DNA of 60,868 bases from a virus (taxonomy: Duplodnaviria > Caudoviricetes): positions 1 through 60,868 of IMG/VR virus record IMGVR_UViG_3300037584_005633. One strand, written 5' to 3'. The translations under genes and the position numbers were made by a program. Numbering within the stretch: the first letter of the stretch is position 1; each line of letters opens with the position of its first letter. The notes below the pieces were generated by a model. It made no database searches. It had not been told where the DNA came from and saw nothing but the letters and a program-made list of their open reading frames with translations. Of this stretch, positions 38,387 to 59,571 are shown piece by piece.

Positions 38387-38617
38387 TCAAGTGTTTTTCC
38401 TGTTCTTGTCAACTATGCAAGTAACATCAAGATAAGAAATATGGAAGCCTCTTGATGTCAAATTAAGCGCAATTTCATTGGCTTTTTCAACTTTTCGTTT
38501 TGCACATTGAGTTTCTGTATAAAAAACTATTGGGTTTTCATTTATATAAGCGCAGTGATTTGTTCCTGTTAGGGGATCAATTAAGCATAATAAACCCATT
38601 AAAAAAAATTCTGACAT
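38387..38617 (-). CDS. hypothetical Cys-containing protein, possibly secreted
   Basis: Hydrophobic N-terminus, four Cys. Confidence 0.65.
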   Translation of the reverse strand: MSEFFLMGLLCLIDPLTGTNHCAYINENPIVFYTETQCAKRKVEKANEIALNLTSRGFHISYLDVTCIVDKNRKNT

Positions 38618-38642
38618 AATTTAATATACCACAAATTTTCTC

Positions 38643-38679
38643 TTGACACAGATAAGACGATTTCCTATATTAATGGGAT
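38643..38679 (+). promoter_or_regulatory. sigma70 promoter with ATGGGAT box
   Basis: TTGACA-17-TATATT-A-ATGGGAT, then GGAG RBS. Confidence 0.8.
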
Positions 38680-38690
38680 AGGAGAAAACA

Positions 38691-38888
38691 ATGAACTTAA
38701 AAAGCAAATCAAAACTATTTCACGCATTAGTCGAGAAAATAGATATAGCATTGGCAACCGAACACAATTTTGATCGTATTGCTGATAAACTTAAAAACTT
38801 ACATATCAAAGTAGGTGATGATTACATGAAACCATTACATACGGATTTATGTACTAAACTTGCAATCAATGAATTGGAGAGCAGATGA
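38691..38888 (+). CDS. hypothetical early protein
   Basis: Promoter and RBS. Confidence 0.75.
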   Translation: MNLKSKSKLFHALVEKIDIALATEHNFDRIADKLKNLHIKVGDDYMKPLHTDLCTKLAINELESR

Positions 38889-57003: not shown

Positions 57004-57582
57004 ATGGCTAATGTAGCTGAAAAATATGGTCTTAGACCAGTAAGAAAGTTAGATGGCTCTCCATTTATTAACGCACAAAACAGATACAGAATTGCAAGTA
57101 ACTACGGTACTGCAATTTTCCAAGGTGACTTGGTAAAACCTGTAACTGGTGGCGGAATCGAAAGAGCAGTTGCTGCTACTTCTGATAAAGTCATTGGCGT
57201 TTTTAACGGAGTGTTCTACACAGACCCTACTACTCAGAAGCCTACGTTTAAGAACCACTATCCTGGATCCGTTGTAGCGAGTGATATCGTTGCTAACGTA
57301 ATTGATGATCCAAATGTGGTCTATTCGATAGACTCTGACGGAGCGTTTGCAGTAGCAGACATCTTCAAAAACTTTGCAATAACAAACGTAACAGGAAACA
57401 CTTTAACAGGTATTTCTGAAGTTCAATTGGACTACAGTGTATCTGGTTTGACAACAAGTGGAACTGTTCTTCAAGCAATCGATATTTCGCAAGATACGCA
57501 AAATAGCGAAGCTGGAAGCGCGAATGTAGATGTGTTGGTTAGAATAAATAACCATTTCTACAGTCAAGGCACAGGCTTATAA
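57004..57582 (+). CDS. head decoration / minor capsid protein
   Basis: YGLRP..IFQGD.V..GVFNG..DDP; directly before capsid. Confidence 0.7.
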   Translation: MANVAEKYGLRPVRKLDGSPFINAQNRYRIASNYGTAIFQGDLVKPVTGGGIERAVAATSDKVIGVFNGVFYTDPTTQKPTFKNHYPGSVVASDIVANVIDDPNVVYSIDSDGAFAVADIFKNFAITNVTGNTLTGISEVQLDYSVSGLTTSGTVLQAIDISQDTQNSEAGSANVDVLVRINNHFYSQGTGL

Positions 57583-57601
57583 TAATAGGAGATTATAAAT
57601 T

Positions 57602-58510
57602 ATGGCTATATCAAGATCACAACTAGTTAAAGAACTAGAGCCAGGTTTAAATGCACTATTTGGCCTGGAATACAACAGATACGACAATGAACACGCAGAG
57701 ATCTTCACTACTGAAACTTCAGACAGAGCGTTTGAAGAAGAAGTAATGTTATCTGGCTTCGGTACTGCAGCAACTAAAGCTGAAGGTGCTATGGTCACTA
57801 TGGATCAAGCGACTGAAGCGTACACATCAAGATACACTCACAACACTGTAGCATTAGGTTTTGCTATAACTGAGGAAGCTATCGAAGATAACTTGTACGA
57901 CAGATTAGCTGGCAGATACACAAGAGCTCTTGCAAGATCAATGGCGCAATCTAAACAAATAACAGCAGCGAACGTTCTAAACAACGGTTTCGACACAGCT
58001 AACGGTGGTGACGGAAAAGCACTTATGACTACTGATCACCCATTAGCGAACGGTGGAACATTCAGAAATGAATTGTCTACTGCTTCTGACTTGTCAGAAA
58101 CTTCACTAGAACAATCGTTAATCGATATTGCTGCGTTCGTAGACGAAAGAGGACTTAAGATCGCTCTACAAGGTAGAAAATTAATAATTCCAAAAGAATT
58201 ACAATTTACTGCTGAGAGAATCATGAGATCACCTCAAAGAGTCGGAACTGCAGATAACGATATCAACGCAATGGCAAACATGGGAATGATACCAGAAGGT
58301 TACAGAGTAAATCACTTCTTAACTGACACGGATGCATTCTTCATTATGACAGATGCACCTAACGGTCTAAAACACTTTGTAAGATCGCCAATTAAAACAG
58401 CGATTGAAGGTGATTTCGACACTGGAAACGTTAGATTCAAAGCTAGAGAAAGATACAGCTTCGGCTTCTCTGACCCTAGAGGAATCTTCGGATCTCCAGG
58501 TGCTGCGTAA
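57602..58510 (+). CDS. major capsid protein (Mu gpT-like)
   Basis: MAISRSQL.KELEPGLNALFG, F.ITEEAIEDNLY, RERYSFG.SDPR; highly biased codon use. Confidence 0.92.
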   Translation: MAISRSQLVKELEPGLNALFGLEYNRYDNEHAEIFTTETSDRAFEEEVMLSGFGTAATKAEGAMVTMDQATEAYTSRYTHNTVALGFAITEEAIEDNLYDRLAGRYTRALARSMAQSKQITAANVLNNGFDTANGGDGKALMTTDHPLANGGTFRNELSTASDLSETSLEQSLIDIAAFVDERGLKIALQGRKLIIPKELQFTAERIMRSPQRVGTADNDINAMANMGMIPEGYRVNHFLTDTDAFFIMTDAPNGLKHFVRSPIKTAIEGDFDTGNVRFKARERYSFGFSDPRGIFGSPGAA

Positions 58511-58531
58511 TATCTAAGTACCTATCTATCT

Positions 58532-58564
58532 AAGGGGGCGGTGTTTTACATCGCCCCTTTTTTT
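58532..58564 (+). terminator. intrinsic terminator after capsid gene
   Basis: GGGGCGGTG/CATCGCCCC stem plus T7. Confidence 0.9.
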
Positions 58565-58580
58565 ATGTATAATATAAAAA

Positions 58581-58646
58581 CCTAGAGTAACTATTATGTC
58601 GACTGGCTAGGCAGACGGTATAGAGACGACATAACTAAAGCTATAC
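58581..58646 (+). ncRNA. doubly pseudoknotted RNA element (candidate Mu-gpT-DE motif)
   Basis: Interleaved stems CCTAG/CTAGG, TTATGTCG/CGACATAA, GTATAG/CTATAC; TATAAT upstream; RBS directly downstream. Confidence 0.7.
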
Positions 58647-58659
58647 AAAGGAGAAAATT

Positions 58660-59205
58660 ATGGCGAATACAACATTTTCGGGACCAGTACGATCGGAAAA
58701 CGGTTTTATTGGAGCAACGAAAAACTCAACAACTGGAGCTTTTACAAATAACTTCCAAATAGATTCATCTGGAAACTATGTAGGAACTCTTATGATTGGT
58801 CAAGGAACTGCTAACGTACCTTGTGCAGCAACTGCTGGAACAAACGAAGTTACATTTTCACAACCAGACAACTCAGTAATAACTTCAATTCAAATAGTTT
58901 GTACATCTGCACCAACTGTTGCATCAGGTGACATTGGTTTTAAAGTTGGAACAGCTACAGGTGGAGCACAATTAGTTGCTGCTATCACTGATCAAATTCT
59001 TGATGCTGGAACAACTGTACCTGCAGGTGCTCACTACCCTACAACTCTTTTAGATACGACTGGAAGCGATGCTTCTCCAGCTGCATCTCCAAGAGCAAAT
59101 GTAAGTGGTGCTGCAAGAAGTATTTTCTGTCAGATCACTACAACTACAACCGCATCTGCTGTTGGTAATTTTGCATTTATTATAAATTACAAACAATTTG
59201 CGTAA
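58660..59205 (+). CDS. virion structural protein (capsid-associated)
   Basis: MANTTFSGPVRSENGF start; T/A/G-rich. Confidence 0.75.
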   Translation: MANTTFSGPVRSENGFIGATKNSTTGAFTNNFQIDSSGNYVGTLMIGQGTANVPCAATAGTNEVTFSQPDNSVITSIQIVCTSAPTVASGDIGFKVGTATGGAQLVAAITDQILDAGTTVPAGAHYPTTLLDTTGSDASPAASPRANVSGAARSIFCQITTTTTASAVGNFAFIINYKQFA

Positions 59206-59215
59206 TATTAAATTA

Positions 59216-59235
59216 GTGGCTCCTACGGGAGCCAC
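59216..59235 (+). other. 8-bp hairpin with cUACGg loop between late genes
   Basis: GTGGCTCC-TACG-GGAGCCAC, no U-tract. Confidence 0.65.
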
Positions 59236-59250
59236 GTACTAGGAGAACAC

Positions 59251-59571
59251 ATGAGTTTTAAAAGTGATATACAAGCCACAAGATCTACTGCTGCGGCAGG
59301 AGCTACAGCTATTATTGAGCAACCTGTAAGACTAAGAGGAATTATAGTTGCATCAGATGGCACAGGAGCTGGAACTTTGGAACTTACAACTACATCAAAC
59401 TCTGGAACAACTTTGTTTCAAGCAGATGTACCATCTGGAGATGTTATTAATTTTAATTTTCCTGAAGATGGAATTCTTTTTCCAAAAGGACTTTTTTGTA
59501 AAACCAAAACTAAAGTGACTGCTTATACTTTGCTTACAGATAAATATTCAGGACCTGGATTAACAACGTAG
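59251..59571 (+). CDS. virion structural protein
   Basis: RLRG...PEDGILF motif. Confidence 0.75.
   Translation: MSFKSDIQATRSTAAAGATAIIEQPVRLRGIIVASDGTGAGTLELTTTSNSGTTLFQADVPSGDVINFNFPEDGILFPKGLFCKTKTKVTAYTLLTDKYSGPGLTT

Follow-up and report, generated by a model that had tools for sequence, protein, structure and literature searches.

A doubly pseudoknotted leader RNA of a hypervariable capsid-accessory gene in phages related to HTVC023P, proposed as an expanded relative of Mu-gpT-DE

What is the role of the 66 nucleotides (nt) that separate a promoter-like site from the ribosome-binding site of the gene following the major capsid gene in the phage record IMGVR_UViG_3300037584_005633? This record, which we analyzed over its whole length of 60,868 bp (hereafter the window), carries direct terminal repeats and represents a complete phage; it is related to Pelagibacter phage HTVC023P (77.8% nucleotide identity over the capsid region). 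An initial annotation of the interval had described three perfect stems (58581/58607, 58594/58627 and 58618/58641) in the order A-B-A′-C-B′-C′, and we find all three at those places, within the 66 nt of positions 58581–58646. Reading of the sequence likewise places this leader, as annotated, after a TATAAT (58568–58573) and before AAAGGAG (58647–58653) and the ATG at 58660, the order being capsid gene terminator (58532–58560), leader and open reading frame (ORF) of the next structural gene. The annotation had further likened the leader, by context only, to Mu-gpT-DE (RF03012), a motif from the set of Weinberg et al. (2017) whose function is unknown and which Rfam types as ‘Gene; sRNA’. We find that the structure of the leader is solid and unusual, and we infer that it controls in cis the expression of the gene that follows it.

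Evidence for the helices comes from approximately 120 related phage loci, in which the three stems are paired in 93–98% of cells as compared to 20–49% with the partner slid, and in which all helices show many compensatory changes across more than 100 distinct sequences; such changes among homologs were one of the features by which the initial annotation proposed that the structure should stand or fall. The first capsid neighborhood (80 loci, 75–99% capsid identity) was collected by a capsid-protein search of IMG/VR. On A1, a plain MAFFT alignment of 48 distinct homologous leaders, helix A is paired in 93.3% of cells with 5/5 pairs changed on both sides, and helix B in 98.4% with 7/8 pairs changed on both sides; slid partners pair in only 23–45% of cells on this alignment, and the observed score was reached in 0/500 shuffles. 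Over all alignments the values are 93.3–98.5% for helix A and 96–98% for helix B, with 7–8 of the 8 pairs of the latter covarying (98.2% and 8/8 on A3, which comprises 56 trimmed sequences). Helix C was counted on A3, and helices A, B and D on A1, A2 and A5. Over five pairs helix C is paired in 95.7% of cells, with 4/5 covarying, and its sixth pair, counted apart, is paired in 81.5%. MAFFT cannot place the 5′ arm of helix A and the 3′ arm of helix C together, the linker lengths being variable, and alignments fitted to R1, a covariance model of the double-pseudoknot motif, split the 3′ arm of helix C, for which the conserved Shine-Dalgarno (SD) tail competes. The count on A2 retains six dubious rows (window 38617, 38166 and 41037, L045:3063, L043:3004 and L036:3037) together with two cut rows.

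Two further observations bear on the helices. RNAalifold on its own recovers helix B, in which G·U outnumbers A·C by 28 to 1, an excess that identifies the + strand as the one that folds. In a partner-swap control with 58 distinct sequences, the complementarity of each sequence's own arms (A, 11.05; B, 8.17; C, 11.48) lay 11–20 standard deviations above that of arms swapped between sequences (8.13 ± 0.25, 2.86 ± 0.26 and 8.41 ± 0.25, respectively).

In the single sequence the stems do not go beyond chance, and it is comparison that makes them real. Minimum-free-energy folding of the window's leader gave z = −0.23, with 75/200 shuffles folding equally well; such nested folding leaves pseudoknots out and is uninformative for a single sequence. 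At least 19 bp in the A-B-A′-C-B′-C′ topology arose in 2/5000 mononucleotide shuffles of the region, and an equally good triple stem (at least 19 bp) occurs in 21/4052 tiles of 95 nt taken from the real, AT-rich window, such that triple stems in pseudoknot order are, from one AT-rich sequence, weak evidence alone. The z value and the tile count are what could be said for chance complementarity in an AT-rich spacer, an explanation that is refuted by the compensatory changes and to which we assign a practically negligible probability. It is also contradicted by a test that makes no use of the stems, in which we searched DNA for the junction bases only (GACTG-N6-CAGACG-N6-AGAC), leaving the stems unconstrained. 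At least 120 stretches with this pattern were found in viral contigs and at least 120 in prokaryote genomes. All three stems were present in 65/74 evaluable viral matches as compared to 1/79 evaluable matches in prokaryote genomes, where at that database size most matches are expected to be chance, and a gene starting M..T.F.GP followed 69 of the 74 viral matches. The sole three-stem match among the 79 (L233; 12,143 bp, from a Gammaproteobacteria assembly) is followed by a gene starting MSSTTFSGPVTS, and L233 is probably a phage contig inside that assembly.

The three annotated stems are correct, but a fourth helix, which we call D, and a three-way junction had been overlooked. The middle pair of helix D is U-A in 44, G-C in 12, A-U in 4, C-G in 1 and something else in 2 sequences of the first neighborhood (A2), and A-U in 35, U-A in 12, C-G in 4 and G-C in 3, with none unpaired, in a second, GC-rich capsid neighborhood. 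This covarying pair, together with a neighboring invariant C-G and a G-C, points to a helix of 3 bp, which is lengthened in some sequences to UAG/CUA, AGC/GCU or AGG/CCU. Helices B, D and C are predicted to meet in a three-way junction that is clamped by two pseudoknots, the first (helix A) formed between the 5′ tail and the loop of hairpin D, and the second (helix C) between the 3′ tail and the strand that joins D and B (Table 1). Three GAC triplets frame this core at near-fixed spacing (13 nt in 55/58 and 11 nt in 44/58 sequences), and the unpaired junction bases A, AC(R) and (A)GA are kept in 51–58 of the 58 sequences while the GC content of the motif ranges from 0.28 to 0.61 across homologs. 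Helix B is closed by a pair between the first GAC (its G) and the third (its C), which is G-C in 55, A-U in 2 and U-A in 1 of the 58. For helix D, the Rfam structure of Mu-gpT-DE suggests closure by the C in the first GAC and the G in the second. Alternatively, the first and third GAC may form G-C / A·A / C-G and so extend helix B; covariation cannot choose between the two pairings because the bases are invariant. The linkers between the 5′ arms of A and B and between the 3′ arms of B and C vary among homologs in sequence and length. The window holds one copy of the motif.

Table 1. Coordinates of the leader RNA and of its neighbors (window positions unless a locus is named).
Feature	Position	Strand	Remarks
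Helix A 5′ arm, CCTAG (5′ tail of the RNA)	58581–58585	+	Pairs with 58607–58611
Helix B 5′ arm, TTATGTCG	58594–58601	+	Pairs with 58627–58634; ends with G 58601, which begins the first GAC
Unpaired A that separates B from D	58602	+	A in 58/58 distinct sequences
Helix D 5′ arm, CUG	58603–58605	+	Pairs with 58612–58614; covarying middle pair
Helix A 3′ arm, CTAGG (in loop of hairpin D)	58607–58611	+	Pairs with 58581–58585
Helix D 3′ arm, CAG	58612–58614	+	Pairs with 58603–58605; contains the G of the second GAC
Junction strand A-C-G between D and C	58615–58617	+	A 58/58, C 56/58, G or A 56/58
Helix C 5′ arm, GTATAG	58618–58623	+	Pairs with 58641–58646
Junction strand A-G-A between C and B	58624–58626	+	A 51/58, G 56/58, A 57/58
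Helix B 3′ arm, CGACATAA	58627–58634	+	Pairs with 58594–58601; first C is the C of the third GAC
Helix C 3′ arm, CTATAC (3′ tail)	58641–58646	+	Pairs with 58618–58623; ends 2–3 nt 5′ of the SD
SD, AGGAG (within AAAGGAG, 58647–58653)	58649–58653	+	Read from sequence
Presumed target gene, 181-residue protein (predicted all-beta)	58660–59205	+	ORF; conserved N-terminus MANTTFSGPVRSENGF
Major capsid protein gene (5′ neighbor, outside the RNA)	57602–58510	+	Pfam, PHROG, HTVC023P identity
Intrinsic-terminator-like hairpin of the capsid gene, T-run 3′ of hairpin	58532–58560	+	13 pairs, 7 of them G-C
Promoter-like site, TTTACA-17-TATAAT	58545–58573	+	11/12 matches; TATAAT (58568–58573) ends 7 nt before helix A
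Mu-gpT-DE loci with loop/start-codon complementarity	L404–L482 (e.g. L405:1139–1200); also L058, L067, L080		

With which of its neighbors is the leader associated? The covariance model R1 matches the window and 63/81 loci of the first capsid neighborhood, as well as 65/80 of the second. In four of these loci (L059, L072, L075 and L079) the motif lies approximately 500–700 nt past the capsid stop codon, still directly before the same gene, and the loci L007–L009, L023, L027, L031 and L034 have neither the accessory gene nor the motif; in these last loci the capsid terminator leads straight to a homolog of the window ORF at 59251–59571. The other first-neighborhood loci comprise 7 too short to tell, L065, which has another gene, and 3 with Mu-gpT-DE, and the second-neighborhood loci that lack the motif comprise 5 with Mu-gpT-DE, 5 that are truncated and 5 with other genes. 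The RNA thus travels with the downstream gene and not with the capsid gene, which suggests that leader and gene form one optional module. The motif is confined to one phage capsid lineage, except for the one contig in a Gammaproteobacteria assembly. R1 matches in coding sequence (L036:3037, L045:3063 and L043:3004) and at window 38166 (− strand) and 41037 were rejected as noise (E = 0.09–0.5). A weak match at window 38617–38693 (+ strand; 25.1 bits, E = 7.7e-4), upstream of an ATG at 38692, includes a −10-like box, GACAC, AGACG and a hairpin (ATTTC/GGGAT) abutting AGGAG, and may reflect mere promoter and SD similarity.

The protein encoded by the downstream gene begins with approximately 16 residues that are kept among its relatives (M-A-N-T-T-F-S-G-P-V-R-S-E-N-G-F; MANTTFSGPVRSENGF and variants). 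Its remainder is hypervariable in sequence and length (92–248 residues) between phages with nearly identical capsids, such that the gene resembles a cassette for an exchangeable surface domain, with conserved sequence on either side. A Pfam scan of the window's protein returned no family, and of its 648 metagenomic relatives none among those listed has a functional name. The AlphaFold2 model is an all-beta sandwich, predicted to be a jelly roll (mean predicted local distance difference test score, pLDDT, 79.4). Its best match among solved structures is a weak one to 7eel_H from the capsid asymmetric unit of cyanophage Pam1 (E = 1.2e-3; template-modeling (TM) scores 0.48/0.59), and 44 BFVD matches at E ≤ 0.001, all predicted phage proteins, include several named ‘structural protein’. 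We disregarded a PHROG match to ‘Rz-like spanin’ (E = 5.7e-7 over 53 residues) as uninformative. With moderate confidence we see in the protein a probable decoration or cement-like component of the capsid. The stop codon of its gene is followed directly by a perfect hairpin (GGCTCC-CGTA-GGAGCC; 59193–59238) that is probably a terminator; its match to the eukaryotic histone 3′ stem-loop family in the Rfam scan is a chance one. The upstream gene product matches Pfam Phage_capsid_4 (E = 3.1e-12), Mu-like_gpT weakly (31.1 bits) and the PHROG major head protein.

Is the leader related to Mu-gpT-DE? An Rfam 15 scan of 57500–59500 at E ≤ 10 gave no match of any family to the leader and none of Mu-gpT-DE anywhere in that interval, no family reached its gathering score in a scan of the whole window (49 bits in the case of Mu-gpT-DE), and R1 conversely does not detect Mu-gpT-DE loci. 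As positive controls, 14/15 pattern-selected or neighborhood loci scored 59–75 bits for Mu-gpT-DE. The likeness by context, however, goes further than had been noted. In sister phages Mu-gpT-DE occupies the very slot of the window's leader (65.3 bits in L080, 43.9 in L058 and 38.9 in L067; 60.6–64.5 bits in L383, L384, L393, L395 and L398), that is, after a Mu-gpT-like capsid gene and directly before an M..T.F.GP gene, within the same capsid lineage, and both classes run from a −10 box to the ribosome-binding site. By eye, moreover, they share the skeleton CUG-A-CAG-[loop]-CUG-AC-(8–9 nt)-GA-CAG, which has 8 nt in the middle in L330, a GC-rich double-pseudoknot member, and 9 nt in Mu-gpT-DE.

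Aligned on this skeleton, the parts of the two RNAs would correspond as follows. The Rfam consensus of Mu-gpT-DE (CCCUGACAGcc...ggCUGACAcUAGCCAcGACAGGAGAU..AUG) already extends over both SD and AUG of the gene that follows, and the 3′ arm of its helix P1 (CCUG/CAGG) is the CAGG of CAGGAG, part of the SD. P1 would be the equivalent of helix B, with the same G-C closing pair between the first and third GAC, and P2 the equivalent of helix D, with a closing pair that joins the first GAC (its C) to the second (its G). The bulged A6 of Mu-gpT-DE falls on A 58602 of the window and is followed by the CUG/CAG hairpin, and in GC-rich relatives of the window's motif helix D is exactly CAG/CUG. The 3′ internal-loop strand of Mu-gpT-DE, 13 nt long (ACAcUAGCCAcGA), may correspond to the 12 nt AC-G-GUAUAG-A-GA of the window, which has the same AC...GA frame and length class; the middle differs, and in the window it is the 5′ arm of helix C, pairing with 58641–58646. 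In Mu-gpT-DE the internal-loop strand probably pairs downstream as well. The two classes differ in that Mu-gpT-DE is only 53 nt long and its P1 has 4 bp with the SD as 3′ arm, whereas helix B has 8 bp and lies outside the ribosome-binding site, its 3′ arm being 15–26 nt upstream of the SD. In P2, a plain hairpin, the loop has no pairing with the 5′ tail, so that there is no helix A, whereas helix D has 3 bp and its loop takes part in pseudoknot A. The downstream pairing predicted for Mu-gpT-DE falls on the AUG and codon 2, whereas the 3′ arm of helix C lies upstream of the SD.

That downstream pairing in Mu-gpT-DE was examined with the pattern CTGAC-N8-CGACAGGAG, which yielded at least 120 viral stretches, of which 71 distinct ones were compared; 5 without an upstream CTGACAG, 2 at contig ends and 1 without a nearby ATG were dropped, and 65 were counted. 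The 3′ internal-loop bases (typically UAGCCA) are complementary to UGGCUA, the start codon and codon 2 (n = 65), and pair in 89.7% of cells as compared to 9.5–46% when slid. One pair is G-C in 55, C-G in 8 and something else in 2 sequences, tracking an Ala or Gly second codon. At the two outer pairs, which are weaker, 15 and 19 cells are unpaired. A pseudoknot between loop and start codon, which is not among the pairs of the Rfam model, is therefore supported but not proven, its covariation resting on essentially one pair. A 2020 CaCoFold paper lists Mu-gpT-DE among the families with extra covarying pairs; the main text of Weinberg et al. (2017) does not discuss Mu-gpT-DE, and its supplement may describe the motif, including any pseudoknot. 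Taken together, these comparisons make a structurally expanded relative of Mu-gpT-DE the best reading of the window's RNA, which we would class as a new structural variant, akin to a known family whose function is unknown. One junction core would then occur in two architectures. Mu-gpT-DE itself has the look of a leader in which the ribosome-binding site of the following gene is locked up, and this gives the family a concrete reading that can be tested, in place of a ‘downstream element’ or small RNA.

Where does the RNA begin? The −35 element (TTTACA) of the promoter-like site falls within the hairpin of the capsid terminator, in its loop and 3′ arm, with the −10 element coming after the T-run, such that terminator and restart promoter occupy 42 nt (58532–58573); the layout is likewise visible in many homologous loci, most of which have a visible GC-rich hairpin 3′ of the capsid stop codon. 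A TAnnnT box ends 5–8 nt 5′ of helix A in 40/58 distinct homologs, and from its place just 5′ of helix A in most leaders we infer that the RNA probably starts at or close to +1 of a sigma-70-type promoter of its own. In one clade (L071, L073, L076 and L081) we see no −10 box, and the motif lies directly 3′ of the capsid-gene hairpin.

A 5′ terminus that is base-paired, as the distance from −10 box to helix A in these 40 homologs implies, would also befit a constitutive protector or processing barrier, in which the knot shields the mRNA from 5′-end-dependent RNases and gives high, stable expression with no switching. The leader's own promoter just past the capsid terminator, its strong SD and its A/U-rich spacer between SD and AUG would suit such a role, for which a plain hairpin would nevertheless suffice: the invariant junction bases and two pseudoknots exceed the need. 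Together with the burial of SD and AUG in Mu-gpT-DE, which would lower rather than raise translation, and with the clade that has no visible −10 box, this leads us to consider constitutive protection an improbable account.

What, then, does the leader do? With modest confidence we favor a cis-acting leader of approximately 66 nt that controls translation and is an expanded relative of Mu-gpT-DE. The initial annotation had included a cis-regulator of capsid-accessory stoichiometry among its proposals, and we favor the cis-regulator because the RNA spans the distance from around +1 of a promoter of its own up to the ribosome-binding site, because it travels with the downstream gene, and because the Mu-gpT-DE fold takes in SD and AUG. 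The folded leader would compete with, or sterically hinder, binding of the 30S subunit, since the end of helix C falls either on the SD or no more than 5 nt away from it. Among 56 homologs, 28 have a helix C whose 3′ arm overlaps the SD core and 9 one whose 3′ arm abuts it, and in the other 19, the window included, the arm stops 1–5 nt short of it; alignment rows of the homologous leaders show an AGGAG-like stretch before the ATG. Hindrance could be direct where helix C contains part of the SD (28/56) or abuts it (9/56), and steric or kinetic where the SD lies beyond helix C (19/56). The yield of accessory protein might in this way be set, or fed back upon, independently of the separately terminated capsid mRNA. 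The near-invariant junction bases would most likely be a tertiary core or the site of an effector that stabilizes the fold; an unassembled structural protein acting autogenously would be a first guess, and a protein effector seems only weakly favored over a small-molecule ligand or a constitutive role.

Several points weigh against control of translation by this leader. The SD of the window lies 2–3 nt outside helix C, so simple masking is inapplicable here, and across homologs the SD is partly buried in only about half. In the window's leader we read neither an anti-SD stretch (CTCC or TCCT) nor an evident alternative conformer. The helices are AT-rich and, by calculated duplex energies that include initiation, weak at 37 °C (A −4.7, B −7.8, C −3.9 and D −0.1 kcal/mol), although predicted to be stronger at sea temperatures; helices D and A may be alternative rather than simultaneous pairings. 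Homology to Mu-gpT-DE is proposed from a short skeleton recognized by eye, and neither covariance model finds the other class. Capsid binding explains the conserved N-terminus of the accessory protein equally well. RNA libraries are uninformative on transcription start, fold and regulation: 17 runs contain parts of the window as assembled contigs, and in the contigs of four marine runs the capsid gene (57571–58493) has a summed depth of up to approximately 2500, with DNA carry-over possible, while the leader and accessory gene are thinly covered by contigs without usable 5′ ends or cleavage sites.

The same architecture could be that of a small-molecule riboswitch, with the junction as aptamer and a ligand that locks helix C (in Mu-gpT-DE, the helices on SD and AUG) and turns translation off. 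Two pseudoknots and approximately ten near-invariant unpaired junction bases across diverged sequences, a place in a 5′ leader whose 3′ strand reaches the ribosome-binding site, and helices of such marginal stability that they could need a ligand all agree with this, as do the features of a ‘biochemically sophisticated RNA’ given in the main text of Weinberg et al. (2017). The controlled gene, however, encodes a probable virion structural protein without metabolic link, so no ligand suggests itself; we see no expression platform with alternative pairing, and a riboswitch sits poorly with a motif found in one capsid lineage bar a single contig. Rfam riboswitch families gave no match (leader at E ≤ 10, whole window at gathering score), and we consider a small-molecule riboswitch unlikely. 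A broader proposal, that the three-way-junction core common to both classes is an aptamer and defines a new class of riboswitch or autogenous operator, is put forward only tentatively. It would have translation of a hypervariable capsid-surface protein switched by a metabolite or by free structural protein, which we likewise think rather doubtful; if true, virion composition would not previously have been known to be under the control of a sensor RNA.

Two further proposals dispense with translational control. A self-cleaving ribozyme, as the initial annotation had also suggested, might cut transcripts that read through from the capsid gene and so set the mRNA of the accessory gene apart. Small ribozymes are frequent in the setting of phages, and the fold here is compact and pseudoknotted and has unpaired bases that are conserved. 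Its strands follow one another in an order like that of the pistol ribozyme: a hairpin stem, a strand in the loop of that stem for the pseudoknot, a second stem, the partner of the pseudoknot strand and the partner of the second stem. The leader, unlike pistol, has no P3 hairpin and no conserved cleavage dinucleotide in its variable linker, nor is one evident elsewhere outside the junction, the linkers being variable. Its own promoter makes processing unnecessary, and no ribozyme (pistol, twister, hammerhead, hepatitis delta virus-like or hatchet) is among the 10 Rfam matches at E ≤ 10 in 57500–59500; we hold a ribozyme to be highly improbable. The second proposal takes the motif, which lies right after a promoter and before a gene that is followed by a terminator-like hairpin, as a put-like processive antiterminator, or else, in keeping with the type that Rfam gives Mu-gpT-DE, as a trans-acting small RNA, a packaging RNA (another role suggested initially) or a virion RNA. 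No terminator stands between motif and gene, however, the motif always ends at the ribosome-binding site, the inclusion of SD and AUG in the Mu-gpT-DE fold points to translation, and the genome has only one copy, such that we regard roles of this kind as very unlikely.

Control of translation in cis thus remains the reading that we favor, and it bears on how phages dose capsid-accessory proteins whose outer domain is swapped between strains. HTVC023P-type phages are reported as the most abundant pelagiphage group, and the element should therefore be very common in nature. It would be among the commonest structured phage RNAs in the sea, and yet it goes undetected by Rfam 15. A literature search found no description of the motif; the pelagiphage papers that we consulted do not mention it, among them PMC9599517, in which the words pseudoknot, riboswitch, noncoding and intergenic do not occur. 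At 66 nt, with four helices, two pseudoknots and heavily covarying pairs, the fold lends itself well to structure determination and to screens for ligands or proteins.

How does the leader compare with known systems? In the rpsO/S15 operator, the T4 gene 32 leader and the preQ1-II and SAM-II riboswitches, the ribosome-binding site is held in a pseudoknot. The Rfam scan (E ≤ 10) gave no sequence or model match to any of these systems, and the likeness is one of design: in each of them, as in the window, the 3′ strand of a leader pseudoknot reaches the SD, and the logic that we propose, in which the folded state would limit initiation, is the same. The window's RNA differs from all four in having a three-way junction with two flanking pseudoknots, and in standing before a gene for a probable virion protein.

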